Part shown: positions 3,335 to 58,100 of the stretch, piece after piece
Position numbering within the stretch: the first letter of the stretch is position 1
How the letters are laid out: each line of letters begins with the position of its first letter
Source of the DNA: Pseudomonadota bacterium
Lineage (GTDB): Bacteria > Oederibacteriota > Muellerivitia > Muellerivitales > Muellerivitaceae
NCBI GenBank assembly: GCA_021324075.1
Contig: JAJPJW010000054.1
Span: 500-64,499 of the forward strand
Length of the DNA: 64,000 bases
Direction: 5' to 3'
Made by a program: the position numbers and the translations under genes
The notes under the pieces: generated by a model
What the model was told of the DNA's origin: nothing
Databases searched by the model: none
Seen by the model: only the letters and a program-made list of their open reading frames with translations

Positions 3335-3337
3335 CCC

Positions 3338-5821: not shown

Positions 5822-5845
5822 ACCGATCTTAACTGAGGTAGGGCC

Positions 5846-8152: not shown

Positions 8153-8212
8153 GGAAGAACCCGGCCGAAAATCCGGGTTCGCCCTTAAAATCCATAGCGT
8201 AAGGAGATCTTC

Positions 8213-11158: not shown

Positions 11159-11184
11159 GCTGGGTGTGGCTTTTGGGAAGACAG

Positions 11185-13149: not shown

Positions 13150-13243
13150 AGACTCCTCAAGTTCATAAAAACATACCGCGTTTTTTAAGAAACACCAAAC
13201 GGCGACAGGGCAGGTTTAAAAGCGGCGATGAAGACCGAAGAGG

Positions 13244-13936
13244 CTATGGGATGAACTTTAAATCGACCCAATCCACGTTGCTTTCGGTATTGGTGAACTC
13301 GGTGTTGTCCGCGCAGAGGACGAGTTCCTTGGCTCCGGCGACGGGCACGTCGATGGGAAAGGCTTCCGCGTCCGACTTCATCTTGGGACTCCTGAAAATT
13401 TCGCGCCCATCGGCCAGGACGACGTAGACCACCCCCCAATCAGGGCTGGAAGTGGAGTCCTGCCCCACTTTGCAGGAAAAGTGGCCGGCCTTCCCTTGCA
13501 AATCAAAGGCGATCTTGGAAGGCGCATGGGTACCGAACCCGTTTTGGAAGGTCGTTCCATGGATAACCAGCGGCCTCCCGTCGATATTCAGGTTCACCTT
13601 GGGCGGAAGGGTAAAGGTGACGTTGGAGATTTTTTCGCCTAAATAGCCGAATTTGTTGCGGATGTCGTCCGATACGGGGCCGGTCCAAGCGGCGTAACCC
13701 CATTCAGCGGGAATGCCGTCCACGGTTGCGTCCAACTTGTGCCTTTCGAAACCGTCTTGTCCGGACCAGAGGCGGACCATGCGGAGGGAAGGCTGAAGGA
13801 CTGGCAAGAAGGCCAGGGCCAAAAGAAGGGCGGCCGCAAGGGCTGGGAGGGCACCGGTATTTTGGGAGGCCGGAGAGGCTTTCATCGGGGCCTTGCCCTT
13901 GGTTTTTTCGGTTCGGGACCGGACTTGTTTCGGCAT
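13244..13936 (-). CDS. Secreted or membrane-anchored NPCBM-like (NEW2) carbohydrate-binding domain protein.
   Basis: N-terminal hydrophobic anchor. 'NIDGRPLVIHGTTFQNGFGTHAPSKIAFDLQGKAGHFSCKVGQDSTS...VVYVVLADGREIF' matches the NPCBM consensus (IDGK..Y..G.G.HA.S.I.Y.L...F...VG.DD). Confidence 0.55.
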   Translation of the reverse strand: MPKQVRSRTEKTKGKAPMKASPASQNTGALPALAAALLLALAFLPVLQPSLRMVRLWSGQDGFERHKLDATVDGIPAEWGYAAWTGPVSDDIRNKFGYLGEKISNVTFTLPPKVNLNIDGRPLVIHGTTFQNGFGTHAPSKIAFDLQGKAGHFSCKVGQDSTSSPDWGVVYVVLADGREIFRSPKMKSDAEAFPIDVPVAGAKELVLCADNTEFTNTESNVDWVDLKFIP

Positions 13937-13950
13937 CGTTTATCCCCGGA

Positions 13951-16818: not shown

Positions 16819-17523
16819 ATGCCAAGATCTTCTTCCTTCCGCACGGATTTCGAGAACCACAAGGACACTTACCGGCAGGAAATCCAAAATTCCATTTCCT
16901 TTATCGGCCAAAACCTGGATTTTTTCACGCAAGTCAAGGTGGATTGCCTGTTGGACTTGACGCGCCGCTATGTGGGCGGCTCCAACCGGTTGAAAATCCT
17001 GGACGTGGGTTGCGGGGTCGGGATCACGGACCAGTATTTAACCGGCTATTACCAAAAGCTTTACGGTGTGGACCTAAGTCCCGGGGTGGTTCGCAAGGCC
17101 AAACAGTTGAATCCGCGGGCCAGCTACCGGCATTATGCGGGGCGCACCCTTCCCTATGCCTCCAATTCCATGGATGTTACCTTCGCCATCTGCGTCATGC
17201 ACCATGTGCCGCCCGAAGGGCTGGGCCGTTTCGCTTTGGAAATGACAAGGGTCACGCGAAAAGGGGGCCTGGTCGTGGTCATCGAGCATAATCCCTGGAA
17301 TCCCCTGACCCAGATTGCGGTTTCCCGGTGTGAAATGGACGACGACGCCATTCTTTTAAGAAGCCGGAAGGTCGAAGAGCTTTTAAAAGTAAATGGAGAT
17401 ATCGTCGAGAAAAGGTACATCCTGTTCACGCCTTTTCCGGTGCGTCCCTTTCGGTTTTTGGCCCCCTTCCTCGGCAAATTTCCATTGGGTGCCCAGTACT
17501 ACGTCGCCGCCAGGAAAAAATAG
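16819..17523 (+). CDS. Class I SAM-dependent methyltransferase (Methyltransf_11/12 type).
   Basis: Motif I 'ILDVGCGVGITDQYL', followed by an acidic post-motif and 'VMHHVPPEG'. Confidence 0.75.
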   Translation: MPRSSSFRTDFENHKDTYRQEIQNSISFIGQNLDFFTQVKVDCLLDLTRRYVGGSNRLKILDVGCGVGITDQYLTGYYQKLYGVDLSPGVVRKAKQLNPRASYRHYAGRTLPYASNSMDVTFAICVMHHVPPEGLGRFALEMTRVTRKGGLVVVIEHNPWNPLTQIAVSRCEMDDDAILLRSRKVEELLKVNGDIVEKRYILFTPFPVRPFRFLAPFLGKFPLGAQYYVAARKK

Positions 17524-17549
17524 GCGTTCGAGAACGCGAGGAGGCCCCA

Positions 17550-18245
17550 TTGGGCAAGAAGGTCGCGATCCTTCAATCCAATTACATTCCGTGGAAGGGC
17601 TATTTCGACATCATCCATAGCGTTGATTTGTTCGTTTTTTACGACGACGTCCAGTTCACGAAGAACGACTGGCGGAACCGCAACAAAATCAAGACCCCCA
17701 ACAGAAGCCAATGGTTGACCATCCCCACGGGCTACCACAACGACCAACTCATCAATGAAGTTACCCTGCCTTCCAAAGACTGGCAGGAGAAGCATTGGAA
17801 GACCCTGACCCAGTACTACGTCCGGGCCCCCTATTTCAAAACCTACGAGCCCCTTTTGCGGAAAATCTACCTCGAAGCCGAGTGGAAGTTCCTTTCGCCC
17901 CTGAACCAATCCCTCATCCGTCTGATCTCCAAGGACATCCTGGGGTTGCCGACGGAATTCGCCCAGTCTTCGGATTTCGAGCTTCCGGGTAAAAAGACCG
18001 AACGGTTGATCGAACTTTTGAAGAAATGCGGCGCCGATTATTACCTTTCGGGCCCCGCGGCCAAGGATTACCTGAAAGAAGAAGCCTTTGAACAGGAGGG
18101 AATCCGGCTAGAATACAAGGACTATTCGGGCTATCCCGAATACCCCCAGTTTTACCCGCCCTTTGAACATTCGGTGACGATCCTGGACCTGTTATTCCAC
18201 ACGGGGCCCAAGGCTTCGGATTATATCTGGGGATGGCGGAACTAG
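17550..18245 (+). CDS. WbqC-like family protein (O-antigen/aminosugar cluster-associated).
   Basis: The N-terminus 'VAILQSNYIPWKGYFDIIHSVDLFVFYDDVQF' is the WbqC family signature. Confidence 0.7.
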   Translation: MGKKVAILQSNYIPWKGYFDIIHSVDLFVFYDDVQFTKNDWRNRNKIKTPNRSQWLTIPTGYHNDQLINEVTLPSKDWQEKHWKTLTQYYVRAPYFKTYEPLLRKIYLEAEWKFLSPLNQSLIRLISKDILGLPTEFAQSSDFELPGKKTERLIELLKKCGADYYLSGPAAKDYLKEEAFEQEGIRLEYKDYSGYPEYPQFYPPFEHSVTILDLLFHTGPKASDYIWGWRN

Positions 18246-18303
18246 CGGGGCGGAAGGCCGGACCCGGATTTTATCCTGGTTTGTTTAAAGCAAGGAGCCT
18301 TTC

Positions 18304-19236
18304 ATGGCTTTTATTTCAGCCGTCATTCCGGTTTACCGCAGCGAAAAAACCCTTCCCGAACTTTACCTGCGCCTGAGGGCCGCCCTGGGGAAGGTCTCTC
18401 CCGATTACGAGATCCTGTTCGTCGACGACCACGGCGGCGACGGCTCCTGGAACGTCATCAGCGACCTCGTCCACCGGGACAAAAGGGTGGGCGGGATCCA
18501 GCTCAGCAAGAATTTCGGCCAGCACGCGGCCACCCTCTGCGGCATCCAGTGGTCCAAGGGCAAATGGATCGTCACCCTGGACGACGACCTGGAGCACCAG
18601 CCCGAATTCATCCCCAAGCTTTACAAAAAGGCCCTGGAGGGTTTCGACCTGGTTTACGGCGTCTATCCCCAGCGTTCCCACAGTTGGTGGCGCAACCTCA
18701 CGTCCCGGATAGCCCGGTTCCTCTTCCAGATGGCCATCCCTTCCTTGAATTTCGAATATACCTCCTTCCGCGTCATCCGGCGGGAGACCGCCCTGGCCCT
18801 TTCCCAATTCGATTCCCCCTTCCCCTTCGTGGACGGCTATCTTTCCTGGGCCACCAACTACTACGCCACCGTTCCCGTGGAGCACGGGAAGCGGGCCGAG
18901 GGGGGGAGCAATTACACCTTCGGGAAGCTCCTGTCCCACACCATCAATATTTTCGTCACTTTTTCCGACCTTCCCCTGAAGATGGCGGCTTGGATCGGCA
19001 TCTTTTCATTCGTGGGCGGTTTTTCCTGGCTGGTGGTCATTTTTTTAATGAAGGTTTTCGGTGAAATTACGGTCAACGGCTATACCTCCCTGATGGCGGC
19101 GTTGATCACGTTCAACGGCATCCAATTCTTCATCCTGGGGGTTTTCGGCTCCTACCTGGGAAGGATCAATTTCAAGACCTCCAAGCAACCCCTTTTCCTC
19201 GTGGGCTCCATCAAGGGTTGCGCGAAGCGCAAATAA
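18304..19236 (+). CDS. GT2 polyprenyl-phosphate sugar transferase, ArnC/GtrB/CsbB-like.
   Basis: GT2 fold 'ISAVIPVYRSEKTLPELY...ILFVDDHGGDGSWNVI' with a DxD-like 'LDDD' motif and two C-terminal TM helices, typical of ArnC/GtrB. Confidence 0.75.
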   Translation: MAFISAVIPVYRSEKTLPELYLRLRAALGKVSPDYEILFVDDHGGDGSWNVISDLVHRDKRVGGIQLSKNFGQHAATLCGIQWSKGKWIVTLDDDLEHQPEFIPKLYKKALEGFDLVYGVYPQRSHSWWRNLTSRIARFLFQMAIPSLNFEYTSFRVIRRETALALSQFDSPFPFVDGYLSWATNYYATVPVEHGKRAEGGSNYTFGKLLSHTINIFVTFSDLPLKMAAWIGIFSFVGGFSWLVVIFLMKVFGEITVNGYTSLMAALITFNGIQFFILGVFGSYLGRINFKTSKQPLFLVGSIKGCAKRK

Positions 19237-19270
19237 GATTTCGGGACTTTGACCGAAAAGCGAGGTTGTT

Positions 19271-19933
19271 TTGAAACCCATCGTCCTATTTGGAACAGGG
19301 CCTTACGCTTCGATGGTCCATCATTACCTTTCACGCCAGTCCGCCAGCCGGGTGGCGGCTTTTACCGTCGACGCCCAATACTCGCCCGGGGAGTCCTTTT
19401 GCGGGCTGAAGGTGGCCCCCTTCGCCGAAGTGGAACGGCTTTTCCCGCCGGCCGAGTATGACATGCTGGTTGCGGTGGGCTACAGCCAGGTCAACCGGAT
19501 CCGCGCCGAAAAATGCCGGGAGGCCAAGAGCAAAGGCTACCGTCTGGCTTCCTTCCTCCACCCCACCAACGTATTTTGGGACGGGTTCCAGCCCGGGGAG
19601 AACTGCATTTTTTTCGAAAACAACGTCTTCCAGCCCTTCTCGAAAATCGGCAACAACGTCTGCGTCTGGGCCGGAAGCGACATCTGCCACCACGCCGAGG
19701 TGGGGGACAACGTCTATATCGCGCCGGGAGTCGTCGTCTCCGGGGGGGTCCGGATCGGGGACAACAGTTTCATCGGTTCAAACGCGACGATCCGGGACCA
19801 GGTCAAGATCGGCAAAAACTGCGTGATCGGCGCCGGGGCCGTCATTCTCCACGACGTGGGGGACAATGAAGTCCATGCCGCCCCCGAACCCCGGCAGCTG
19901 TCCGTTAAAAGCAACGAGTTGAAGAATATCTGA
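19271..19933 (+). CDS. PglD/NeuD-family sugar N-acetyltransferase (left-handed beta-helix).
   Basis: N-terminal Rossmann-like 'MKPIVLFGTGPYASMV' followed by hexapeptide repeats ('IGNNVCVWAGSDICHHAEVGDNVYIAPGVVVSGGVRIGDNSFIGSNATI'). The start is TTG. Confidence 0.75.
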   Translation: MKPIVLFGTGPYASMVHHYLSRQSASRVAAFTVDAQYSPGESFCGLKVAPFAEVERLFPPAEYDMLVAVGYSQVNRIRAEKCREAKSKGYRLASFLHPTNVFWDGFQPGENCIFFENNVFQPFSKIGNNVCVWAGSDICHHAEVGDNVYIAPGVVVSGGVRIGDNSFIGSNATIRDQVKIGKNCVIGAGAVILHDVGDNEVHAAPEPRQLSVKSNELKNI

Positions 19934-19965
19934 GCGCCTGAAAAAACCTTAAGGCTTGGCCGACC

Positions 19966-21102
19966 ATGAACCTGATCCCTTTCAACAAACCCTTCCTGGT
20001 GGGAAGCGAGTTGGAGAACATCCGCCAGGCGCACGCCAACTGGCACTTGTCGGGGGACGGCCCCTTCACCCAGAAATGCCACCAGTGGCTGGAAAAATCC
20101 ATCGGGTCCCGAAAGGCCCTCCTGACCCATTCCTGCACGGCGGCCCTGGAAATGTCCGCCCTCCTCCTGGACCTGAAACCGGGCGATGAGGTCATCATGC
20201 CTTCCTACACCTTTGTTTCCACGGCCAACGCCTTTGCATTGCGCGGGGCAGTGCCGGTTTTCGTGGATGTGAGGCCCGACACCCTCAACCTGGATGAAAA
20301 CAAGGTGGAAGCCGCCATCACCCCCAAGACCAAAGCCATTGCGGTGGTCCATTACGCCGGGGTGTCCTGTGAGATGGACCGGTTTTTGGAAATCGCCCGC
20401 CGCCACCGCCTTTGGCTGGTGGAGGACGCGGCCCAGGGTATCGGTTCGAGCTACAAGGGGAAGGCCCTGGGCAACCTGGGCTCCTTGGGAGCCCTGAGCT
20501 TCCATGAGACGAAAAACATCATTTCGGGGGAGGGTGGGGTGCTCCTGGTCAATGACGAAGCTTTTGAGGAAAGGGCGGAGATCATCCGGGAGAAAGGCAC
20601 CAACCGGATCAAGTTCCGCAAAGGAATGGTGGATAAATACACCTGGGTGGACCTGGGTTCCTCCTACCTTCCCAGCGAGCTGATCGCGGCCTTCCTTTGG
20701 GCCCAGTTGGAGAATTTCGACGCCATCATGAAAAAACGCATGGACCTTTGGTTGGCCTACCACCAAGCCTTCGAAGACGCCGAGAGGAAAGGCTTCCTGC
20801 GCCGGCCCATCATTCCAAGGGACTGCCGGCACAACGCCCATATGTATTACCTGCTCCTGCCCCAAGCGGAAAGGCGCGCCGCCTTCCTGGCCGCCCTCAA
20901 CGAAGGCGGGGTGAACGCCGTCTTCCACTATGTGCCCCTCCACAGCTCCCCGGCTGGGCAGAAATACGGGAAGGCCCAGGGTTCCCTGGAGGTCACGACG
21001 GAGATGAGCGCCCGCATTGTGCGCCTTCCCCTTTGGATCGGGTTGGAAGGACAGCAGGCCACGGTGATCGAGAAGGTGTTGTCGGAATTAAAAAGAGGCT
21101 GA
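19966..21102 (+). CDS. DegT/DnrJ/EryC1-family PLP-dependent sugar aminotransferase, WecE-like (dTDP-4-keto-6-deoxyhexose transaminase).
   Basis: 'IPFNKPFLVGSELENI...DGPFTQKCHQWLE' and 'VIMPSYTFVSTANAF', 'HETKNI', 'REKGTNR' closely follow the E. coli WecE sequence as recalled from memory. Confidence 0.8.
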   Translation: MNLIPFNKPFLVGSELENIRQAHANWHLSGDGPFTQKCHQWLEKSIGSRKALLTHSCTAALEMSALLLDLKPGDEVIMPSYTFVSTANAFALRGAVPVFVDVRPDTLNLDENKVEAAITPKTKAIAVVHYAGVSCEMDRFLEIARRHRLWLVEDAAQGIGSSYKGKALGNLGSLGALSFHETKNIISGEGGVLLVNDEAFEERAEIIREKGTNRIKFRKGMVDKYTWVDLGSSYLPSELIAAFLWAQLENFDAIMKKRMDLWLAYHQAFEDAERKGFLRRPIIPRDCRHNAHMYYLLLPQAERRAAFLAALNEGGVNAVFHYVPLHSSPAGQKYGKAQGSLEVTTEMSARIVRLPLWIGLEGQQATVIEKVLSELKRG

Positions 21103-21119
21103 TTCGGCCGCAGTTGGGC

Positions 21120-21947
21120 CTATCGACGCTTCCAAAGGGCCCTAGATTTTTCCAGGGATTCCTCCATCAAGGCGCCGTCCCAGGCGACCGGGGAGGAAGT
21201 TTTAGTAAGCCATCGCAGGAAGACCACCAGGCTCATGGACAGGACGATAAAACCGTCCCAAACCGTCGTGCCCGCCCGGTAAAGGGGCACTTCCACCTCA
21301 AATTCATTGTCAATCTTGAAACCTTCCCGCGCCGAGATCAGCGCGATTTCCTGGGCGCAGGAGTATTTCACGCCACGGTAATACCTCAGGATAGGCTCTA
21401 AGGTTTTGACCTTCAAAAGCCTCAAGCCCGATTCCACGTCCCGGTATTTTTGCCCGGAGAGAAGGGAATTGGTCCAGGTCAGGAACCGGTTGCCCCAGAT
21501 TTTATAGGTCGGGTAAACCGAGAAATCACGGCGTGTCAGGACCACGTCGGCCCGGCGCGCCGCCAAGTGGCGCACAAGGGCGGGGATGTATTCGGGTTTG
21601 TGCTGTCCGTCGGCGTCAATGGTGACGACGACGTCCTCGGGTCCCGCCATTTTTTTTCCCGCCAGGTACAGGACGAAAAGGAAGCCCTGCTTCAAAGCGC
21701 CGGCCATTCCGGTGTTCGCCGGCAAGTCGACGATATAGGTGTTTTTCCTTTTCCTGGCGAAGGCCTTGAGCAGGGCCAGGCTTTTGTCCCGGGACCCGTC
21801 GTTGACGCAAACCAGGAAGTCCACCTGCCGGGCCAGGCGCGGCAGGATGTTGCCCAGGGTTTTTTCCTCGTTATAGACGGGCAGGACGACAATGGTTTTA
21901 GGCAAGGATTCCCTTTTCGAAGGATTTCGCTTTGAGGGTGCGGTCAA
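21120..21947 (-). CDS. GT2 glycosyltransferase, DPM1/polyprenol-phosphate-sugar synthase-like.
   Basis: 'IVVLPVYNEEKTLGNILPRL...VCVNDGSRDKS...TIDADGQH' GT2-A motifs. Confidence 0.7.
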   Translation of the reverse strand: MTAPSKRNPSKRESLPKTIVVLPVYNEEKTLGNILPRLARQVDFLVCVNDGSRDKSLALLKAFARKRKNTYIVDLPANTGMAGALKQGFLFVLYLAGKKMAGPEDVVVTIDADGQHKPEYIPALVRHLAARRADVVLTRRDFSVYPTYKIWGNRFLTWTNSLLSGQKYRDVESGLRLLKVKTLEPILRYYRGVKYSCAQEIALISAREGFKIDNEFEVEVPLYRAGTTVWDGFIVLSMSLVVFLRWLTKTSSPVAWDGALMEESLEKSRALWKRR

Positions 21948-22663
21948 GCCAGGGGATCGGGGCCCAGCCTCAACAAGAGGGCCCGGCCCAGGTATTTCAA
22001 CAACGTGGCCAACCCCAGTTTGGATTCCCCCCGGGTTCGGTCGACGAATTCAATGGGTGATTCCTCCACCTTCAGTCCCGCCCGGGTGCAGCGGTAAAGG
22101 ATTTCAGAAACCGTAAAGGGGTCGCGGGCGGCCAAGCTACGGACCTTGATTTTTTCCAAGGCCCTTCTTGAAAAAGCCCGGAAACCCGAGGTGGGATCCT
22201 TGGGTTTCAAGCCCAACACGACTTTCAGGTAATAGCGGGCGAAGTTACTGGTCCATTGGCGGTGGAAAGGGCGGTCCATATCCTTCCCACCGGGCATATA
22301 GCGGCTTCCGATGACCACGTCCGCCTTCCCGGATTCCAGGGGCGCCAGGAGGGCCGGGATGAACTTGGGCTGGTGGGAAAGATCGGCGTCCATTTCCACA
22401 ACGGCCCCCGCCCCCATTTGAAGGGCTTTTACGAAGCCGTCGCGGCCGGCCCAACCCCGGCCCTTGACGGAACGGTCCCGGAGCAACAGATGCAGTTTTT
22501 TGTCCTTTTTCATGAGCTTCCGGACTTCCTCGAAGGTGCCGTCCGGGGAGGAGTCGTCCACCACCAGCACCTGGGCCTGGGGGACGCTTTTATGGAGCTG
22601 TTTGACGAGTTCGCCGATATTGGCCCGTTCGTTGTAGGTGGGAACCATGACGATGGTTTTCAT
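21944..22663 (-). CDS. GT2 dolichyl/polyprenyl-phosphate mannose (hexose) synthase-like, DPM1/Ppm1 type.
   Basis: 'IVMVPTYNERANIGELVKQL...VLVVDDSSPDGT...EMDADLSHQP'. It overlaps the previous gene by 4 nt. Confidence 0.75.
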   Translation of the reverse strand: MKTIVMVPTYNERANIGELVKQLHKSVPQAQVLVVDDSSPDGTFEEVRKLMKKDKKLHLLLRDRSVKGRGWAGRDGFVKALQMGAGAVVEMDADLSHQPKFIPALLAPLESGKADVVIGSRYMPGGKDMDRPFHRQWTSNFARYYLKVVLGLKPKDPTSGFRAFSRRALEKIKVRSLAARDPFTVSEILYRCTRAGLKVEESPIEFVDRTRGESKLGLATLLKYLGRALLLRLGPDPLA

Positions 22664-22697
22664 CGGGGTACGCCTTCCGGAGGTTGATGCGACAAGA

Positions 22698-23825
22698 CTA
22701 GGTTTGTTTCAACTGTCTTTCCACGGCGGCCAGCATGTCTTTTTCCTTCAGGTTGTCCATGCAGGAAACCTTCTGGCTGCATTCGCCCTTGTAATAGTCC
22801 TGGCAGGGAAGGATGGGCAGGACCTTTTCACCCCGGCCGAAAAGGTCGATCTCGACGTCCGAGGTGGGCCCAAAGTAAGCCACGACCCTTTTGCCAAGGG
22901 CCACGGCCACGTGCAAGGCCAGGGTGTCGCCCGTCACCATCACATCGCTCAGGTTGACCAGTGCGGCGAACTGGCGCAGGGTGTTTTCGGTGCCCGTCGC
23001 CAGGCAGAGGCCCTTGAGCTTTTTGGCGAGGGCCGGCATGAGTTCCCGTTCCTCGGGCCCGCCGTAAAGCAGGATGCCGACCTTGGGATATTTTTTCTTC
23101 AATTGCCGGGCCAGCCATTCGAAGCCGTCCAGGCGCCAGCGCTTCATGGGCCAGCGGCCGCCCGAGCCGATATTGAAGCCGACGATCTTCTTGAACTTGG
23201 TGAGCTTGTTTTTCTTGGCGAAACCCGCGACGGCCCATTCCTTTTCCTTGGGCGTCAAGGCCAGCTGGGGTTCCTCTCCCTGGAATTTGAATCCGGCCAT
23301 TCGGAACAAATGGTCCTGGTAGGTCTTTTGGTTGGCCTTCTTGGCGGTGTCGAAGATGCCCATTTCAAACCATTCCTCGGCCAGGGGGTCGAGGGGGACC
23401 ACCGCACCTTCCTTGGAAAGACCGAAACCCTTTTTGACCGGGCTGTTGGCCAGGCCCAGGATGGCCGCGGCCTTGCGGCCCATATCGAAATTGAAGGCCT
23501 GGGTGAAGGCAACGGTCCCGAGGAGCCCGGGTAGGACCGGGTCCACCGGGAGGAGGACGTCGATATGGGGGTTCTTCTCCAAAAGCGGCTTGGAGGAATT
23601 TTCCGTCACCCACCAGATGGAAAGGCCCGGGCTGGACTTTTTGAAGGCCGGCAGAATGGAGGTGGAGCGAAGAACGTCGCCTGCGGCATCCAGCTTGACG
23701 ATAAGAACCCGTTGCTGGACGGGTTCGTAGCGTGGACAATCCCGGCAAACGACCCCCTCGGCCTTGTGGGGGGCACAGGGCTTCTCGCCGGTAAAATGGC
23801 GGCAGTCAGGCCTGAAATAAACCAT
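22698..23825 (-). CDS. GT9-family glycosyltransferase (heptosyltransferase-like) with an N-terminal Cys-rich extension.
   Basis: 'VLIVKLDAAGDVLRSTSILPA' is the GT9 N-terminal signature. The first 35 aa carry C8, C17, C27 and C30 ('CRHF...CAPH...CRDCP'). Confidence 0.7.
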   Translation of the reverse strand: MVYFRPDCRHFTGEKPCAPHKAEGVVCRDCPRYEPVQQRVLIVKLDAAGDVLRSTSILPAFKKSSPGLSIWWVTENSSKPLLEKNPHIDVLLPVDPVLPGLLGTVAFTQAFNFDMGRKAAAILGLANSPVKKGFGLSKEGAVVPLDPLAEEWFEMGIFDTAKKANQKTYQDHLFRMAGFKFQGEEPQLALTPKEKEWAVAGFAKKNKLTKFKKIVGFNIGSGGRWPMKRWRLDGFEWLARQLKKKYPKVGILLYGGPEERELMPALAKKLKGLCLATGTENTLRQFAALVNLSDVMVTGDTLALHVAVALGKRVVAYFGPTSDVEIDLFGRGEKVLPILPCQDYYKGECSQKVSCMDNLKEKDMLAAVERQLKQT

Positions 23826-24827
23826 CTAGGGCTGTCCCGGGGCCGGTGGAAGGCTGTGGTAGATGGCCACCCGGTCGGTTTGGACGGTCACCAAATCGCC
23901 GTTGGGAAGCACGCTTAGGGCGGTCATCCCGGGGAGGGGATGGGGGTTTTTGGGGTCCCCTTGCACCAGGACTCCCATTAATTTCCCATCGGTCGTATAG
24001 GCCCGGACGAATTTCCCGTCCTGGGAGGTCACGTAAAGGATATGGCGGGACAGGTCCACCGCTTCGGCCTGGGGAGGGTCCCCGAGGGAAATCGGCCTCT
24101 GGAAATGCCCTTCCGTATCCAAGACCTGGATACGGTTGTTGTCCCGGTCCACCACGTCGTAATGGCCCTGGCCGTCAAAGACAACCTGGTAGGGGCTGTT
24201 GAAGCCGTTCTTCCCGGACCCGTGCTGGCCCCAAGAGGCTAGGATGGCGCCCGAAGGGGCCACCTTGACGGTTCGGTGGCTGCCCGTGTCGGCAATGGCG
24301 AAATTAGACCCATCCCAGGCCAGGCCCCGGGGGCCGTAAAACCCCTTTCCGTTCAGATCCACGCTCAAAACGGGTTTTCCCTTGGCGTCAAAGCCGCGGA
24401 TGAGGGCGTTCCAGGTGTCCATCACGTAAATATTCCCGGAGGCGTCCGAAGCCAGGCAGGAAAACTCGCTGATGGTCGTCGGCCCGGCCTGTTTTTGGCC
24501 GATTTCCTGGAGAAATTTTCCCTGGGCGTCGAAAACCAGCAACCGCTTGTTTCCCTGGTCGCTGATGACGATCCGGCTATCGGGCAAGGCCATTACATCC
24601 CAAGCCTTGAAAGGTCCGCAGGGTTGGTCGGCCCCGCTGAAATCAAGGATGTCCTGGACGAAGACCTGTTTGGAGGTATTGGCCTTGTTAATGACGATGG
24701 AAACCATTTCGGCCAGGAGCAGGAAACCGAAGAAGATCAAAATGACGGCGATCAGCTTGCCGGAACGGCGCCCCCCTTTTCCCTTCGTCTTCTTTAAGGA
24801 AGATTTGCGTTGCGTCCTTTTCGCCAT
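23826..24827 (-). CDS. Membrane-anchored NHL-repeat beta-propeller protein.
   Basis: Lys/Arg-rich N-terminus and one TM. Repeats of the type 'VISDQGNKRLLVFDAQGKFLQEIG' and 'IADTGSHRTVKV'. Confidence 0.6.
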   Translation of the reverse strand: MAKRTQRKSSLKKTKGKGGRRSGKLIAVILIFFGFLLLAEMVSIVINKANTSKQVFVQDILDFSGADQPCGPFKAWDVMALPDSRIVISDQGNKRLLVFDAQGKFLQEIGQKQAGPTTISEFSCLASDASGNIYVMDTWNALIRGFDAKGKPVLSVDLNGKGFYGPRGLAWDGSNFAIADTGSHRTVKVAPSGAILASWGQHGSGKNGFNSPYQVVFDGQGHYDVVDRDNNRIQVLDTEGHFQRPISLGDPPQAEAVDLSRHILYVTSQDGKFVRAYTTDGKLMGVLVQGDPKNPHPLPGMTALSVLPNGDLVTVQTDRVAIYHSLPPAPGQP

Positions 24828-24950
24828 GAGGTTCCTCGCTTGATTTTGTGAAATCCGGTTTGAAAGAGCCCTAAAGATAACATGTTTGGGGGGTGTTTTG
24901 GCCCAGAAATTCCCCCGGGCCGGCCCGGGGGGCTTGGAAGGCGGCTTCGT

Positions 24951-25649
24951 TTAGTCGGTAAACCGGTAACGGATAAGGCAAACCACCGCCACCACCCCGT
25001 CCCGCCAGGTGATCTTTTTGCCCTCCCCAAAGCCCCGGCCGTGGTAGGAAATCGGCACTTCAAAGAGTTTGTAACCGCGCTTCAAGACCTTGGCGGTCAC
25101 TTCGGGTTCAAAGTCGAACCGGTTGGAGCGCAGTTTGAGGGAGCGAAGGATGTCCCCCTTGAAGGCCTTGTAGCAGGTTTCCATGTCGGTGAGGATGGTG
25201 CCGTAAAGCAGGTTGGTGATGTGGGTCAGCAGCTTGTTGCCCATGTAATGCAGGAACATGAAGGCCCGGTGGACGCCCATGAAACGGGAGCCGTAAACCA
25301 CGTCCGCCGAGCCGTTGAGGATGGGGGCCAGGACGGCCTTGTAGTCGTTGGGGTCGTATTCCAGGTCCGCGTCCTGGATGATCACGATGTCCCCCTTGGT
25401 ATGGGGGATGGCGGTACGGATGGCCGCACCCTTCCCCTGGTTTTTCTCGTGCCGCAGGATGAGCCCCCCGGGAATCTTCAGTTTCGCAAGGATCCGGGAC
25501 GTGCCGTCGGAGGAACCGTCGTTGACCAGGATAATTTGTTTTTTCATCCCGAAGAGCTTGACCGATTGCACCTTTTTTAAAAGGGGCGGGAGGGTTTTTT
25601 CTTCGTTATAAACCGGAACGATGATGGAAAGCAGGGATGGTTTCTTCAA
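24951..25649 (-). CDS. GT2 glycosyltransferase, DPM1-like.
   Basis: 'LSIIVPVYNEEKTLPPLLKKV...ILVNDGSSDGT...IIQDADLEYDP'. Confidence 0.7.
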   Translation of the reverse strand: MKKPSLLSIIVPVYNEEKTLPPLLKKVQSVKLFGMKKQIILVNDGSSDGTSRILAKLKIPGGLILRHEKNQGKGAAIRTAIPHTKGDIVIIQDADLEYDPNDYKAVLAPILNGSADVVYGSRFMGVHRAFMFLHYMGNKLLTHITNLLYGTILTDMETCYKAFKGDILRSLKLRSNRFDFEPEVTAKVLKRGYKLFEVPISYHGRGFGEGKKITWRDGVVAVVCLIRYRFTD

Positions 25650-25741
25650 CGGGACGGCCTCCTGTCGGGCAAGTCCGATGGATTCAAGGCCGGGTTACTT
25701 TATCGGAAGCCGCAACAATCCGCAATCCTTATGGGCGGCCG

Positions 25742-26464
25742 TCAGGATTTACGGTTTTTCCTGAACCCCACGCCGAAAAGGGAAAGGCCGACGGGCTTGG
25801 GGAGGAATTTTTCAATTTTCGAGGAAAAGCTGACGACGAAGTCGTAGAGCATCATCTGGGACTTGGGGATGATCTTGCGCCGGAGGATCTTTCCGTTGAA
25901 CCACCAGCCCAAAATGCCAAGAAGGTTCAAATAACGGCAGTATTCCACCTGGAAGCCAGCCCCAGCGATTTTCTCTTCGAGTTCCGGGCGGGAGTATCGC
26001 CGGAAGTGGCCGTAACTCTTGTCCATCGACCCATAGAGAAACTGGAAGGCCGGGACGAACAAGAGCAATTTGCCGCCCGGCGGAAGAAGGCGGAGGCACT
26101 GGTCGAGCACACCCCGGTCGTTTTCAATGTGTTCCAGGACGTTGACGCAAACGATGGTGTCGGGTTTAAACCGCTTGAGGGCGGAGAGGGGACGGTCCAA
26201 GTTGACCTTTTGGAAGGAAACCACTGCGGTTTTACCCAGACGGCGGCGGGCCGCCTCCAAATAACCGTCGTTGACGTCGGAGGCCAGGACCTTTCCATGC
26301 CGGGCGAAATAGCCCGTGAGGTTCCCGGTGCCGCAACCGATTTCCAGGATGCGGGTTCCCAAGTAAGGCTTCAGCATGCCGTAGATCCATTCGTTGTAAT
26401 GGACCGCGGCGGAAAGGTCGTCCAAGGTCTCCCTTTGGCCGTCCCAGGCTTTGGAAGCGGCCAT
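25742..26464 (-). CDS. Class I SAM-dependent methyltransferase.
   Basis: 'RILEIGCGTGNLTGYFARHGKVLASDVNDGYL' motif I and post-I. Confidence 0.7.
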   Translation of the reverse strand: MAASKAWDGQRETLDDLSAAVHYNEWIYGMLKPYLGTRILEIGCGTGNLTGYFARHGKVLASDVNDGYLEAARRRLGKTAVVSFQKVNLDRPLSALKRFKPDTIVCVNVLEHIENDRGVLDQCLRLLPPGGKLLLFVPAFQFLYGSMDKSYGHFRRYSRPELEEKIAGAGFQVEYCRYLNLLGILGWWFNGKILRRKIIPKSQMMLYDFVVSFSSKIEKFLPKPVGLSLFGVGFRKNRKS

Positions 26465-26466
26465 GC

Positions 26467-28872
26467 TTACTTTGAGACCAACTGGAAGCTGTCCTGCAGG
26501 GTGCTGTCGGAAGAATCCCGTCCCACCCAGAGATTGAAGCTTCCGGGCTCCAGCACATATTTACCCTGCTCGTTGTAAAAGCCAAGTTTGGAGGCGGGGA
26601 GGTCGAATTCCACGGTCTTGGTTTCACCCGGCGCCAGTTCCACCCGCTTGAAATCCACCAGCTTTCGCACGGGTTGGGTGATGCTGGCCACCAAGTCTCT
26701 TATATAAAGCTGGACAATCTCGGTGCCGGCCACCGAGCCGCTGTTCTTGACGTCCACGGTCACCTTGAGGGCACCGGAGGGTTTCAAGGTTTTGGAGTCC
26801 AACGCCAGGTTGCTGTAGTCGTACTGGGTATAGCTCAAGCCGAAACCGAAGGGAAACTGGGGGGTGTTGGGGCAGTCGATGTATTTGGATTCCCATTTTT
26901 CCTTGCCGACGGCGGGCCGGCCGGTGTTCATCTGGGCGTAATAAATGGGAATCTGGCCCAGGTTGCGCGGGAAAGTGACCACCAGCTTGCCGGAGGGGTT
27001 CACGTCACCGAAAAGCACGGCGGCCACCGCATTGCCCTGGCGGGTACCCAAGAACCAGGATTCCACGATGGCGGGAAGATGCTCCGCTTCCCAGGGGATG
27101 GTGAGGGGCCGGCCATTCATCAGGACCAACACCACGGGAACACCCGTGGCCTGGATGGCCTTGATCATTTCCTCCTGGCGGCCGGGCAGGTCGATGGAGG
27201 TGCGCGCCGCGGCCTCCCCGCTCATGTCCTGGGTTTCGCCCGCCACTACCACCGCCACCTGGGCCCTCTTGGCGGTGTCCACGGCTTGGGAAAGGGCTTT
27301 GTCCGTGCCGCTGTCGACCGTGACCCCCACGCCGGGGGCGTAAAGCACCTGGCAGTCCTTGGAGACGGAAGACTTGATGCCGGACAGGATGGTGCTGACC
27401 TTGTCCAAGGCGTCCTCACCGCGGCAATGCCAGCTGCCCAGCGGGTCCATCTTGGAGTCGGCCAGGGAGCCGATGACGGCGATGCTTTTGACGTCCTTGG
27501 AGAGGGGAAGCAGGTTTTTTTCGTTCTTCAAAAGCACGATGGACTGCTCCGCTTCCTGCAGGGCCAGGTCCAGGTTGTCTTTCGTCAAGGTCAGGCCGTC
27601 TTCCTTGGACTCGTCGGCGTAGGGGTTGTCGAAGAGGCCGAGATCGTATTTCACCTTCAGGATGCGGCGCACCGCCCCGTCGATGAAAAAGAGGGGGACC
27701 TTCTTTTCTTTCACCAGTTCGGCCAAATGGTCGCCATAGACGTGCGACTGCATGTCCATATCCACGCCCGCCAATATCCCCTTGGCCGCCGCATCCTTGT
27801 CGTCGGCTGCGTAACCGTGGGAAACCAATTGCTGGACGGAGGCCCAGTCCGAAACCACGAAACCCTTAAAACCCCACTCGCCCTTCAGGATATCCCGCAA
27901 GGTGTGGGTATTGCCCGAGGCGGGCACGCCATTGAGGTCGTTGAAGGCGCTCATGAGGGTTTCGACGCCCGCTTCCACCGCGGCCTTGAAGGGAGGAAGG
28001 TGGATTTCCCGGAGCGTCACTTCCGACATGTCGGTGGTGTTGTATTCCCGGCCCGCAATGGGGGCGCCGTAACCCACGAAGTGCTTGGCGCAGGCCGCGA
28101 TGGAGTTGGGGTCATCCAGGTGTTCCCCTTGGAAGCCCTTGACCCGGGCCGTGGCCAAAACCGAGCCCAAGGCGGGATCCTCGCCCGAACCTTCCGAAAT
28201 GCGGCCCCAGCGGGGTTCACGGGAGACGTCCACCATGGGGGCGAAGGTCCATTTCACGCCCGCCGCCGAAGCCTCTTGGGCGGCCACATGCGCGCATTTT
28301 TCCAGCAAAGCGGGGTTCCAAGCACAGTCCTCCGCCAAGGGAATGGGGAAGATGGTTTTGTAACCATGGATGACGTCCAGCCCAAATAGGAGGGGGATAT
28401 GAAGGCGGGATTGTTCGACGGCAACTTTTTGGAACTCATTGGCCCTTTTCGCGCCATAAACGTTGAGGAGGGAACCGACTTCGTCCTTGGCGATCTCGCC
28501 TTTGATCTTGTCCTCGGTGGATTTCCAAGGACTGTACTGGATCATCTGGCCAATCTTTTCCTCCAAGGTCATCTTGGCGAGCAAGGCCTGGACCTTTGCA
28601 TCCACGGGGGAAAGGGCTTTCTTGTTTTTGGAGGGGGCAGGTTTGGGTGAGGCGGCCGGCGCGGTCCCCTGGGCCTGCGCCATGGAAGCCACTGCGACAA
28701 AGATAATGGCGGTCATGAAGCGGTATCGCATAAATCGTCTCCCTCGGTTGAAAGATGGTGGAAAAATTAAAGCCCGGTTGTGGAAACCGGACTGCAATTC
28801 TAGCTTATCGGCTTGCCGGGGACCTTGGAAAAAGTCGGCCGGCTTGATGGACTTGAACGGCAAAGGGGACAA
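26467..28872 (-). CDS. bglX: Periplasmic GH3-family beta-glucosidase (BglX-like).
   Basis: Signal peptide, then 'LLFGLDVIHGYKTIFPIPLAE', 'GFVVSDW', a C-terminal Fn3-like domain, and 801 aa overall, which matches GH3. Confidence 0.8.
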   Translation of the reverse strand: MSPLPFKSIKPADFFQGPRQADKLELQSGFHNRALIFPPSFNRGRRFMRYRFMTAIIFVAVASMAQAQGTAPAASPKPAPSKNKKALSPVDAKVQALLAKMTLEEKIGQMIQYSPWKSTEDKIKGEIAKDEVGSLLNVYGAKRANEFQKVAVEQSRLHIPLLFGLDVIHGYKTIFPIPLAEDCAWNPALLEKCAHVAAQEASAAGVKWTFAPMVDVSREPRWGRISEGSGEDPALGSVLATARVKGFQGEHLDDPNSIAACAKHFVGYGAPIAGREYNTTDMSEVTLREIHLPPFKAAVEAGVETLMSAFNDLNGVPASGNTHTLRDILKGEWGFKGFVVSDWASVQQLVSHGYAADDKDAAAKGILAGVDMDMQSHVYGDHLAELVKEKKVPLFFIDGAVRRILKVKYDLGLFDNPYADESKEDGLTLTKDNLDLALQEAEQSIVLLKNEKNLLPLSKDVKSIAVIGSLADSKMDPLGSWHCRGEDALDKVSTILSGIKSSVSKDCQVLYAPGVGVTVDSGTDKALSQAVDTAKRAQVAVVVAGETQDMSGEAAARTSIDLPGRQEEMIKAIQATGVPVVLVLMNGRPLTIPWEAEHLPAIVESWFLGTRQGNAVAAVLFGDVNPSGKLVVTFPRNLGQIPIYYAQMNTGRPAVGKEKWESKYIDCPNTPQFPFGFGLSYTQYDYSNLALDSKTLKPSGALKVTVDVKNSGSVAGTEIVQLYIRDLVASITQPVRKLVDFKRVELAPGETKTVEFDLPASKLGFYNEQGKYVLEPGSFNLWVGRDSSDSTLQDSFQLVSK

Positions 28873-29017
28873 GCAAGGGGAAGCTTCGAATTGGAAAGCG
28901 TTTCCAGGGTTTTCTTCGTTGACGGCCCTAGGGCCCTATGACATACTAACCGGCGTTTGGCCTTTCCGTTTCATCCACGAAAGACACCCATCTATCATTC
29001 CGACTTTTGGAGGTTTT

Positions 29018-30313
29018 ATGAAAAATCTTCGGCGCGTTTTGGCTGGTGTTGCGTGTTTAGCGGTCATCCTGGGCCTCGGCCTTTACGGATGCAGTAAAAA
29101 TAGCGGGACAGTCATCCATATCTCTTCGTGGGGCACTCCCGAAGAAAACCAGATCCTCAGCGACCTCATTGCCGATTACAACAAGGCCCATTCCGGGATC
29201 ACGGTTCAGCTGGACCGTATTCCCTTCAACGAATACGTCACCAAGCTTTTGACCCAGGTTGCCGGCGGCGAAGCGCCGGACGTCATTTTTGTGGAAGCCA
29301 ACAACTTCGCACCCCTTTTCCTGCGTGGCGCCCTGGAACCCCTCAACTCCTACATCCAGACCGACCACGTGGATCTCAGCGGTTATTATCCCCAGGTCGT
29401 TGACCGGTTCACGGTGGATGGCCAGACTTACGTCATTCCACGTGATACGGCGCCTATCGGGCTCATTTTCTACAATAAAAAAGCTTTCGACGAAGCGGGT
29501 GTCCCTTATCCCACGGACGATTGGGATTGGGCCACTTTTGTGGCGGATGGAAAAAAGCTGGTCAAGGCCGATGCCTCCGGGAAAGTCACCCGTTGGGGTT
29601 TCATCGACGAGTGGCCGAATCCCGACGCCTGGGTTTGCGACGCCGGAGGTACTTATACCGACAGTGTCAAGCACCCCACCAAATGGACCTACGCCACCGA
29701 CCCGAATACCTTGAAAGGCATACAATTCCGATCCGATTTGATGAACAAATATAAATTTATGATGACCCCGGCCGGTCTCACGGCCATGGGCGGCATGGGT
29801 ACTTCGGACATGTTCGTGAACGGCCAAGTGGCGATGTATTTATCCGGTCTTTGGCCCACGCCCCGGTTCCGCCAGCAGATCAAAGATTTCAAGTGGGACA
29901 TTGTGATGATGCCCAAGAACCCCTCTGGTGGCCGGGCCTTTCCCACGGGTGGTTCGGGCTACGGTATCTTGAAATTTTCCCAACATAAGAAAGAGGCCTG
30001 GGATGTTGTGAAATTTATTTCCGGGGAGGAAGGGGAAAAACGCCTGGCGGCCACCGGATTGGCCCAGCCCGCCCTGATGGCCGATGTGAATTCCCCCGTT
30101 TTCCTCGACGGCAAGGACCCCCAGAACAAGAAGGTGGTCATTGAAGCCATGAAATACGTCCAGTATTTCCCCATCTGCAAAAACTGGTTTGAAGTGCACG
30201 ATAGCATCATCGGCCCCGAATTGGACAAGGTCTGGAGCGGCACAGAGACGGCAGCGGAGGCCATGGAGCACTTGAAGCCCTTGCTGGCGAATAAGCCGCC
30301 CGAGACCAATTAA
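29018..30313 (+). CDS. ABC transporter extracellular solute-binding lipoprotein (family 1, sugar-type).
   Basis: ATG at 29018 after a GGAGG RBS. Lipobox 'LGLYGC'. SBP_bac_1-like sequence. The 28463 ORF start overlaps the GH3 gene and is rejected. Confidence 0.75.
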   Translation: MKNLRRVLAGVACLAVILGLGLYGCSKNSGTVIHISSWGTPEENQILSDLIADYNKAHSGITVQLDRIPFNEYVTKLLTQVAGGEAPDVIFVEANNFAPLFLRGALEPLNSYIQTDHVDLSGYYPQVVDRFTVDGQTYVIPRDTAPIGLIFYNKKAFDEAGVPYPTDDWDWATFVADGKKLVKADASGKVTRWGFIDEWPNPDAWVCDAGGTYTDSVKHPTKWTYATDPNTLKGIQFRSDLMNKYKFMMTPAGLTAMGGMGTSDMFVNGQVAMYLSGLWPTPRFRQQIKDFKWDIVMMPKNPSGGRAFPTGGSGYGILKFSQHKKEAWDVVKFISGEEGEKRLAATGLAQPALMADVNSPVFLDGKDPQNKKVVIEAMKYVQYFPICKNWFEVHDSIIGPELDKVWSGTETAAEAMEHLKPLLANKPPETN

Positions 30314-32435: not shown

Positions 32436-33608
<1,173 letters not shown>

Positions 33609-33616
33609 ACATCTTT

Positions 33617-33667
33617 AACCACAGGGTCCGTTTTAAGAAGAACGACGCCCTGTGGTTCAATTTTTTG
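33617..33667 (+). terminator. Terminator hairpin after metK, whose arms resemble the ends of the intergenic repeat family.
   Basis: 'AACCACAGGG' ... 'CCCTGTGGTT' form a 10-bp stem, followed by 'CAATTTTTTG'. The arm sequence is similar to the 'ACCACRGAGT...CCTGTGGTGAAA' repeats at 39241 and 62229. Confidence 0.6.
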
Positions 33668-33678
33668 AGGAGAACTAA

Positions 33679-34935
<1,257 letters not shown>

Positions 34936-35022
34936 GAAATTTAATCGCTGTCATTGCAAGGAATGCCCCGCGAATAGCGGGGCGTTCATGACGAAGCAAC
35001 CTCAGTTTAAATATGTTTTCCA

Positions 35023-35060
35023 AAAGGCGAACCTTTTAGGTTCGCCTTTTTTGTTTTCGC
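35023..35060 (+). terminator. Rho-independent terminator.
   Basis: 'GGCGAACC-TTTTA-GGTTCGCC' followed by 'TTTTTTGTTTT'. Confidence 0.7.
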
Positions 35061-35098
35061 TGATTGTTCTGTATATAAAATGTCTCAGGTGGAAGGAG
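35051..35098 (+). promoter_or_regulatory. Sigma70-like promoter plus RBS for the TIR gene.
   Basis: TTGTTT(35051-56)-N17-TATAAA(35074-79), and a GGAAGGAG RBS at 35091-98 placed 7 nt before the ATG at 35106. Confidence 0.5.
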
Positions 35099-35105
35099 AT
35101 GGCGA

Positions 35106-35888: not shown

Positions 35889-35895
35889 ACACGTT

Positions 35896-48393: not shown

Positions 48394-48499
48394 ATGCCGC
48401 TTTCCTCAATTGTTTAAAGCCTTTCATGTCGATAGAATGTGCCTTCGGAAGCCCGGGCCAAGGCCCGGGCTTCTTTTTGTGGCGACTTCAAGGAAGGCC

Positions 48500-53617: not shown

Positions 53618-53643
53618 AGCCGAATCCAAAAAGGGAAGGGACA

Positions 53644-54894: not shown

Positions 54895-54905
54895 AAGCCG
54901 CCTCT

Positions 54906-56228: not shown

Positions 56229-56375
56229 GGGGCCATTATTATGGGCTAAAGAATCGGCATCAAGCCAATTACCCGCCTCTTTAAGGTGGCAGAGGTCTTG
56301 GGAGGGCGATAAAATGTGCCCGCTTTATCGGAAATCCGACTGCGTTATGGAAGCACCAAGCGAGGAAGTCCTTTT

Positions 56376-56945: not shown

Positions 56946-57012
56946 AGCCGTTTCCTGTTAGGACCTATAGTCGTCAGCAAGGCCAAAAACCAAGAATGAA
57001 ACCGGAGATGCC

Positions 57013-58029: not shown

Positions 58030-58100
58030 TTACCAAAGTGTTAAATGAACGATGAAGAACATTCGAACTTGATTTTACATTTTACATTGTCCATTCTTGA

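Follow-up and report, generated by a model that had tools for sequence, protein, structure and literature searches.

The window examined here is a stretch of 64,000 nucleotides of contig JAJPJW010000054.1, and the system in question is a block of glycosylation genes on its minus strand, in which a Cys-rich glycosyltransferase of family GT9 lies next to a family GT2 gene resembling dolichol-phosphate mannose synthase (DPMS). A listing of open reading frames (ORFs), together with profile searches, gave the gene order GH3, MT240, GT2-C, NHL, GT9, GT2-B and GT2-A from upstream to downstream, with the following features.

26467..28872 (-), GH3: 801 aa, BglX-like beta-glucosidase
25742..26464 (-), MT240: 240 aa, class I S-adenosylmethionine (SAM)-dependent methyltransferase, Pfam Methyltransf_12/23/11/25
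24951..25649 (-), GT2-C: 232 aa, GT2 glycosyltransferase, PF00535 at 107 bits
23826..24827 (-), NHL: 333 aa, membrane-anchored NHL-repeat beta-propeller
22698..23825 (-), GT9: 375 aa, GT-B glycosyltransferase, PF01075 at 61 bits
23727..23807 (-), N-terminal Cys4 motif of GT9: residues 7-33, D-C-x8-C-x9-C-x2-C-x2-Y
22761..22805 (-), C-terminal cluster of GT9: C341, D343, C349 and C355
21944..22663 (-), GT2-B: 239 aa, GT2 glycosyltransferase, PF00535 at 93 bits
21120..21947 (-), GT2-A: 275 aa as the maximal ORF, GT2 glycosyltransferase, PF00535 at 80 bits

The three GT2 genes, the co-located methyltransferase and a GT9 with four N-terminal cysteines had all been named in an initial annotation of this DNA, and each is borne out by an ORF and by profile matches (the gathering scores are 23.3 bits for PF00535 and 22 for PF01075), whereas the NHL gene, the GH3 gene and the second Cys cluster at the C terminus of GT9 had been missed. 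Counting from GH3, the gaps between successive genes are 2, 92, 123, 0 and 34 bp, and the maximal ORFs of GT2-B and GT2-A overlap by 4 bp. The true start of GT2-A is probably the internal TTG at 21905, because a public gene call with 100% identity is 261 aa long and because AAGGGA precedes this TTG; with that start, the protein would have 261 residues and the overlap with GT2-B would disappear. The true start of GH3 is likewise probably later than that of the ORF, at the Met of a signal peptide (MRYRFMTAIIF...), and GH3 probably heads the block, because it lies immediately upstream of the methyltransferase gene on the same strand with a gap of only 2 bp. We concluded that these genes probably form one operon, serving those steps of a surface-glycan pathway with lipid-linked sugars that take place at the cytoplasmic face.

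The Cys-rich GT9

The GT9 protein begins with MVYFRPDCRHFTGEKPCAPHKAEGVVCRDCPRY, in which the four Cys residues fall at positions C8, C17, C27 and C30. Seven residues of this segment (D7, C8, P16, C17, K21, C27 and C30) are invariant in 56 GT9 homologues with 43-83% identity; every one of the 86 GT9 ORFs in the loci that we compared had the four Cys, and the motif was found in no other ORF of 92 loci. Furthermore, a phmmer search with the 40-residue GT9 N terminus against 1.84 billion representative proteins returned 108 matches, all of which were collinear GT9 N termini, and thus no other protein family carries this Cys4 cap. The cysteines had been described in the initial annotation as a ribbon, a label that is not supported by the AlphaFold model (pLDDT of 94.4, falling to 82-87 across the first 30 residues, and pTM of 0.92). 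Residues 1-37, which precede the first Rossmann strand, consist of loops and two short helices (18-23 and 27-29) with no beta-hairpins according to DSSP, and the spacing C-x8-C-x9-C-x2-C contains a single CxxC knuckle. We therefore prefer "Cys4 cap" to "zinc ribbon."

The second cluster, near the C terminus, comprises C341, D343, C349 and C355, of which the three Cys are invariant. Its spacing is C-x-C-x5-C-x5-C in candidate division FCPU426, whose metagenome-assembled genomes (MAGs) are the closest relatives of the window, and C-x2-C-x4-C-x5-C elsewhere. Residue 343 (22797..22799) is Asp in the window protein and in five related loci and Cys in other relatives, a swap that would still allow metal to be bound. 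This cluster is less distinctive than the N-terminal cap, for a canonical GT9 encoded elsewhere in the window (51372..52421) has no N-terminal cap yet carries C-x2-C-x4-C at the position of this cluster. Each of the two clusters is most likely a structural metal site, by analogy with TibC, where a Cys4 iron finger in the C-lobe of a GT9-like protein is needed for assembly and substrate binding (PMC4358343).

This precedent brings with it a functional alternative, namely, that the GT9 is a TibC/AAH-like enzyme that glycosylates proteins in the cytoplasm before their export, with the NHL propeller as a candidate substrate and the metal clusters serving oligomerization and substrate recognition. 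TibC does occur among the fold matches of the GT9 (E of 5e-8, TM-score of 0.55), but the lipopolysaccharide (LPS)-type GT9 structures are much closer (1e-17 versus 5e-8), and similarity to TibC at the sequence level was undetected even at E<=10. The four Cys of TibC (C339, C342, C358 and C370 in 4RAP/4RB4; PMC4358343) lie near its C terminus, where the GT9 cluster at 341-355 is similarly placed, although the TibC spacing is wider. At the other end, TibC lacks a Cys4 motif and carries an N-terminal beta-barrel of 97 residues, whereas the GT9 has just 37 residues, devoid of strands, before its Rossmann N-lobe, leaving the C-lobe Cys cluster as the sole common feature. Similarly, the NHL gene abuts the GT9 start and lies directly upstream of GT9 in ~17 FCPU426 loci, but this neighbor is confined to FCPU426 while the GT2 partner described below is conserved across phyla. 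We consider the TibC-like reading very improbable. TibC was rejected as a GT9 homologue by sequence and kept as a structural analogy only.

The nearest folds to the GT9 model are Veillonella GT9 (3tov), WaaF and WaaC (Foldseek, 1e-17 to 1e-13), and a profile of the GT9 subfamily matched 3tov at 2.6e-27 and WaaF at 7e-20. The WaaC residues D13, K192, E222, D261-T262 and H266 align to D50, K228, E259, D300-T301 and H305 of the GT9, and this catalytic Asp and these donor-site residues vary little or not at all among the 56 homologues, so that the enzyme, as far as its sequence can tell, is very probably active. By NCBIfam it is not a WaaC, WaaF or WaaQ equivalog (64 versus 185 bits, 58 versus 135 bits and 49.5 versus 170 bits, respectively). 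It has the fold, PF01075 and the catalytic and donor-site residues in common with WaaC, WaaF and the Veillonella enzyme (2H1H, 1PSW and 3TOV) and differs from them in adding the 37-residue Cys4 cap and the C-terminal Cys cluster, and in having as genomic neighbors a DPMS-like GT2, a methyltransferase and GT-C genes in place of those for the LPS core.

Coupling of GT9 to a DPMS-like synthase

GT2-B, the gene downstream of GT9, encodes what is by family a clear DPM1/Ppm1-type synthase, judging from its alignment to DPMS of Pyrococcus furiosus (PfDPMS; 5MLZ), which covers GT2-B residues 1-227 at 38% identity (E of 2e-29). The alignment takes in the full catalytic domain of PfDPMS and the interface helices (IFH), spanning PfDPMS residues 1-220, including IFH1; at the sequence level, IFH2 (214-IFEYL-218) corresponds to TLLKYL in GT2-B. 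Using published residue roles and numbering (PMC5526996), we found by HMMER alignment that GT2-B retains E12, D39, D89/D91 (DAD), H94, R117, G122, R131, S135, R202 and K208, so that the acceptor-phosphate residues (R117, R131 and S135) and those of the A-loop (R202/K208) are all kept. The sole change in the signature is Q93 to Ser, giving DADLSH in place of the 89-DADLQH-94 of PfDPMS. No transmembrane (TM) helices were predicted in GT2-B, and its best NCBIfam match was AglJ (74 bits versus a cut-off of 325). Relatives with 73-85% identity are named "polyprenol monophosphomannose synthase" or "dolichol-phosphate mannosyltransferase" by NCBI and JGI, and automated annotation had thus already reached the same call. 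The product of GT2-B, with GDP-mannose as the donor, is probably polyprenyl-phosphate mannose. GT2-B differs from the DPMS and Ppm1 systems in that its conserved neighbor is GT9 instead of a membrane-anchoring protein like DPM3 or Ppm2.

The GT9 subfamily comprises 690 database relatives at E<=1e-10 and was found in at least 554 of 185,579 species genomes, its carriers being FCPU426, Firestonebacteria, Planctomycetota, the PVC group, Ignavibacteria, Bacteroidota, Nitrospirota and Deltaproteobacteria (related MAGs are assigned to Ignavibacterium album, Melioribacter and Nitrospira). We compared the best 80 species loci of this subfamily (individual loci are designated by L numbers) and found a full-length polyprenyl-phosphate-type GT2 within ~2.5 kb of GT9 in 54 of them, with a density of 1.84 such genes per 10 kb near GT9 and of 0.10 per 10 kb farther out in these loci. 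In 37 of the 80 loci (22 from FCPU426 and 15 from Planctomycetota, PVC or unclassified genomes), a soluble GT2 of ~235-250 aa lies immediately downstream of GT9, commonly with an overlap of 4-10 bases, and all 37 of these partners carry the DPMS signature, including the DAD-x-SH variant in which Q93 is replaced by Ser. The order GH3-MT-GT2C-NHL-GT9-GT2B repeats in L009, L024 and L029, and in L007 without GT2-C. A GT-C gene directly follows the GT2-B orthologue in L001, L015, L016, L020, L027, L028 and L030; in FCPU426 this gene is of the PMT_2 type and related to the window gene at 8213..11158. Methyltransferases and GT-C genes often accompany the GT9-GT2 pair, and in Ignavibacteria and some Nitrospirota the order is GT2(TM)-GT4-GT9-methyltransferase-YfhO. 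The pair also stands without nearby GT-C genes, in L088, where no glycan genes are near it, and in L089, where it comes after Wzz and UDP-GlcNAc 2-epimerase genes. In our literature searches, neither a Cys-rich GT9 nor a GT9 linked to a polyprenol-phosphate mannose (PPM) synthase or to PPM itself came up, and as far as the literature searched shows, a widespread GT9 subfamily with a Cys4 cap and coupling to a DPMS-like gene across several phyla has not been described before.

The main rival to a role tied to this synthase is that the GT9 is simply an LPS inner-core (heptosyl)transferase of the ordinary kind, building on lipid A-Kdo the residue that a GT-C enzyme later decorates in the periplasm from the lipid-linked sugar made by GT2-B; the TibC-like alternative is the weaker of the two. 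The linkage of GT9 to GT2 would then reflect a shared final polymer and not a shared intermediate. The following genes of an LPS/ADP-heptose region of the window (48410..59237), which also includes a LysM/DUF3108 protein, bear on this possibility.

48410..50293, MsbA
50290..50904, GmhB
51372..52421, canonical GT9 heptosyltransferase
56316..56945, GmhA
57013..58029, HldE kinase domain
58101..59237, LpxG/YaeI-like phosphodiesterase

Given the genes for MsbA, GmhA, GmhB, the HldE kinase domain and the LpxG-like protein, the organism probably makes ADP-heptose and a heptose-containing LPS, and the fold and WaaC-type catalytic residues of the Cys-rich GT9 would suit an enzyme of its core. The canonical, cap-less GT9, however, already sits beside MsbA and GmhB, while the Cys-rich GT9 lies elsewhere, with NCBIfam scores far under the WaaC, WaaF and WaaQ cut-offs. 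Periplasmic decoration of LPS from polyprenyl-phosphate sugars by an ArnC/ArnT-like GT-C route is established (PMC12690121), and the GT9-GT2 pair of L089 is next to Wzz and UDP-GlcNAc 2-epimerase genes; on the other hand, translational coupling to a DPMS-like gene and two-gene islands are more typical of enzymes that act sequentially or in a complex. On balance we rate an LPS-core role as unlikely, though with a real chance of being correct.

The other GT2 proteins and neighboring genes

The initial annotation had called all three GT2 proteins DPM1-like. We placed them by the ranks of their NCBIfam, PDB sequence and fold matches rather than by a tree, at identities of 20-28% to the references, and found that membership in the polyprenyl/dolichyl-phosphate glycosyltransferase clade holds for all three, GT2-C and GT2-A being matched by sequence or fold, whereas only GT2-B is DPM1-like in the strict sense. 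The best matches of the three among curated families and solved structures were AglJ, Dol-P-hexose transferase, PpgS, ArnC, PgfS, GtrB and DPMS, and in sequence and fold they came closest to ArnC, GtrB and DPMS rather than to GT2 enzymes that build oligosaccharides in the cytoplasm; none of GT2-A, GT2-B and GT2-C reached an NCBIfam equivalog cut-off. Over residues 7-212, GT2-C matched ArnC at 8e-18 and DPMS at 4e-14 in the PDB, and its best NCBIfam match was AglJ (125 bits versus the cut-off of 325). It has no TM segments and retains E12, D39, DAD, R117, R202 and K208, with R-G-F-G-E-G-K aligned to the A-loop RxxGxSK. The columns of the DPMS-type phosphate-binding pair, R131 and S135, hold His and Asn, so that GT2-C does not qualify as a true DPMS; GtrB, too, is without clear counterparts of this pair (PMC5526996).

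GT2-A is the most divergent of the three. Its AlphaFold model (pLDDT of 90.5) has only ArnC, GtrB or DPMS structures as its first 23 PDB fold neighbors (Foldseek, from 2e-14 for ArnC to 1e-10), the first other GT2 being CgT at 4.5e-10. The protein carries the motif DADGQH, Lys and Asn in the R131 and S135 columns, a single marginal hydrophobic helix at the C terminus and an atypical A-loop, Y-R-A-G-T-T-V-W-D, in which R224, G226, T228 and D231 are invariant in the GT2-A subfamily. It is next to GT2-B only in L007, L008 and L029; elsewhere its homologues adjoin DUF2298 proteins, which may be the transferase partners of the GT2-A homologues. Such pairs were seen in two other FCPU426 loci (L090, 11295..16789, and L091, 9785..16813), where the DUF2298 membrane proteins are 2051-2166 aa long and where the GT2-A homologue and the DUF2298 gene come after a pyruvate:ferredoxin oxidoreductase gene pair.

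The divergence of GT2-A and GT2-C raises the possibility that the three GT2s are soluble enzymes that extend oligosaccharides without charging a carrier, the block then being a generic polysaccharide cluster. TM helices are absent from GT2-B and GT2-C, and in GT2-A there is a single marginal one; human DPM1 and PpgS have none either. [quoted passage not shown] GT2-A and GT2-C lack R131/S135, GT2-A also lacks the RxxGxSK loop, and all NCBIfam matches fall under the curated cut-offs, as one might expect of soluble extending enzymes, but each of the three has polyprenyl-phosphate glycosyltransferases as its best matches in sequence and fold, and GT-C genes are adjacent in relatives. For GT2-B, which keeps every residue that binds the phosphate of Dol-P, direct extension of an oligosaccharide is already unlikely, and for the set of three we judge it improbable.

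The methyltransferase MT240 did not reach NCBIfam equivalog level. Its orthologues occur near GT9 in L007, L009, L024, L028, L029 and L030, and a related methyltransferase directly follows GT9 in ~14 Ignavibacteria and Nitrospirota loci. In L064, a Planctomycetota MAG (CAZBND010000003.1), a 458-aa fusion (11151..12527) has a polyprenyl-phosphate-type GT2 as its N-terminal part and a class I methyltransferase as its C-terminal part; the gene order there is Cys-rich GT9, the fusion and a GT2-C-like gene with 54% identity. The methyltransferase is thus tied to the pathway by synteny and by this one GT2-methyltransferase fusion, which would suggest methylation of the glycan. The NHL protein has one N-terminal TM segment (residues 28-46) and matches to Pfam NHL and to a six-bladed propeller, and the stop codon of its gene abuts the GT9 start; the propeller is a candidate acceptor or periplasmic partner. 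GH3 has Pfam Glyco_hydro_3 N- and C-terminal domains and an Fn3-like domain and scores 764 bits against the NCBIfam BglX cut-off of 666.

Five large multi-TM proteins are encoded at 743..16479 of the window, two of which match PMT_2 and one YfhO. Several of these large GT-C-like proteins carry a C-terminal PA14 domain, and interspersed among their genes are those for a 654-aa NHL protein and for a protein with an NPCBM domain. Both PA14 and NPCBM are modules that bind carbohydrates, and it is unusual to find them attached to GT-C enzymes. The initial annotation had likened the system to eukaryotic PMT/Dpm1 O-mannosylation, and the evidence did not bear this out: the matches to PMT_2 are weak (E of about 1e-7), a further match is to YfhO, and neither PF02366 nor MIR matched any GT-C protein in the window, so that these proteins are not GT39 PMTs. 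The O-mannosylation analogy is accordingly a conjecture. That lipid-linked donors feed the GT-C enzymes, as in the three-component scheme and in PPM-dependent glycosylation, is plausible, and it is a well-known and ordinary arrangement. The further suggestion that each GT2 serves a GT-C enzyme of its own stood in part: GT2-B goes with proteins of the 8213..11158 type and relatives of GT2-A with DUF2298 proteins, while the others showed no pairing. We therefore rejected a one-to-one pairing of every GT2 with a GT-C enzyme, as gene neighborhoods back these two pairings only. In two FCPU426 loci (L001, 1648..3741, and L090, 2575..4608) we also noted GT-C proteins of the TMEM260_N (DUF2723) type with TPR repeats, which correspond in bacteria to a family of eukaryotic protein O-mannosyltransferases; the one in L001 has a GH125 alpha-mannosidase gene next to it.

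A plus-strand cassette (16819..21102) converges on the block and encodes a methyltransferase, WbqC, the ArnC-like GT2 (with two TM segments), an acetyltransferase of the NeuD/PglB/VioB type and a WecE-type dTDP-4-amino-4,6-dideoxyhexose aminotransferase (597 bits, above its cut-off). By its content the cassette resembles a pathway for making an undecaprenyl-phosphate-linked 4-acetamido-4,6-dideoxyhexose, and it is also present on a JGI contig (L092). About 6 kb from the block, plus-strand genes for SAM synthetase and S-adenosylhomocysteine hydrolase (32436..34935) could supply the methyltransferases of the region, or their proximity could be coincidental. The stretch of lowest G+C content (0.505, 34001..36000) coincides with a plus-strand gene for a 260-aa TIR-domain protein (35106..35888; TIR_2, ThsB-like), which may be acquired and defense related and is adjoined by two minus-strand genes for PilT/T2SSE-type ATPases (35896..38030).

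A possible pathway on a lipid-linked intermediate

Taken together, these results suggested a pathway in which the products of the block act on the cytoplasmic side of the membrane. GT2-B, peripheral at the cytoplasmic face, would load polyprenyl phosphate with mannose from GDP-mannose; GT2-C and GT2-A would charge the carrier with other sugars, and the methyltransferase, to go by its synteny and the one fusion, would methylate a sugar of the same pathway. The GT9 would share a lipid-linked intermediate with its DPMS-like partner and act on it at the membrane surface, as suggested by the translational coupling of the two genes in several phyla, adding a second sugar either to the carrier-bound sugar or to a glycolipid that later receives the carrier sugar. 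This second sugar could be heptose, for which the GmhA, HldE kinase-domain and GmhB genes of the ADP-heptose pathway in the window provide a possible donor. The loaded carriers would then be flipped, and GT-C enzymes of the PMT_2 and YfhO types would decorate an extracytoplasmic acceptor, which could be LPS or the membrane-anchored NHL propeller protein. We regard an operon whose GT9 works on a shared lipid-linked intermediate, with later decoration by GT-C enzymes, as the single best explanation of the locus, and give the whole of it about an even chance of being right. Within it, the most likely role for the GT9 is to extend the carrier-bound sugar, because its gene is translationally coupled to that of the synthase, the pair can stand alone, Ignavibacteria have the operon described above, and the canonical GT9 is located separately, beside MsbA and GmhB.

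Several observations weigh against this explanation. Gaps of 92 and 123 bp flank GT2-C, and counts of promoters and terminators in 20900..29200 were at or below shuffle expectation and thus uninformative on operon structure. The R131/S135 pair, which binds the phosphate of Dol-P in DPMS, is absent from both GT2-A and GT2-C. No GtrA/ArnE-like flippase was found, as no ORF of 80-220 aa in the window has at least three TM segments, although the gene for one may lie outside the window. In about 26 of the 80 loci GT9 has no polyprenyl-phosphate-type GT2 nearby, so that the coupling of GT9 to GT2 is frequent and not obligatory. Finally, the known acceptors of GT9 enzymes are Kdo or heptose of LPS and autotransporter proteins, not carrier-linked sugars.

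The proposed pathway resembles and departs from three known arrangements. As in the three-component systems for extracytoplasmic glycosylation, which consist of a GT2 (GtrB, ArnC or CsbB), a flippase and a GT-C enzyme (GtrC, ArnT or YfhO) (PMC11127046 and PMC7389260), polyprenyl-phosphate-type GT2s are found in the window together with GT-C enzymes of the PMT_2 and YfhO types. Three of the four GT2s in the window lack the two-TM C terminus of GtrB and ArnC, however, no small flippase ORF is present, and a GT9 and a methyltransferase (plus a GT4 in Ignavibacteria) are embedded in the module, outside the classical scheme. Relative to DPMS itself, GT2-B and all 37 of the downstream partners differ in the replacement of Q93 by Ser, and the equivalog cut-off is not reached.

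The third comparison is with Haloferax, which assembles an N-glycan on dolichyl monophosphate by means of the DPM1-like AglJ, additional cytoplasmic glycosyltransferases, the methyltransferase AglP and the GT-C enzymes AglS and AglB. AglJ is the best NCBIfam match of both GT2-B and GT2-C, at scores well below its cut-off; the Haloferax route is archaeal and includes no GT9, so that it serves as a working analogy only, and we know of no bacterial example of assembly of this kind. By that analogy, a short methyl-capped oligosaccharide might be built on a polyprenyl monophosphate by a hitherto undescribed pathway shared among several phyla, with the DPMS-like enzyme acting first, GT9 (together with a GT4 in Ignavibacteria) next and a GT-C enzyme transferring the product en bloc outside the cytoplasm, a tentative extension of the pathway that we think rather unlikely. 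If this is true, bacteria would have an equivalent of the AglJ-type dolichyl-phosphate route of archaea, and GT9 enzymes a new class of acceptor; the two metal clusters might then serve to dock the GT9 to the synthase or to the membrane.

What the locus comparison reveals is a subfamily of GT9 whose genetic link is to a DPMS-like synthase and not to genes of the LPS core. Should its members act on a carrier-linked sugar, the range of acceptors would be wider than has been assumed for a family known mainly for the heptosylation of LPS, and the finding would point to the existence of lipid-monophosphate-linked oligosaccharides in bacteria.

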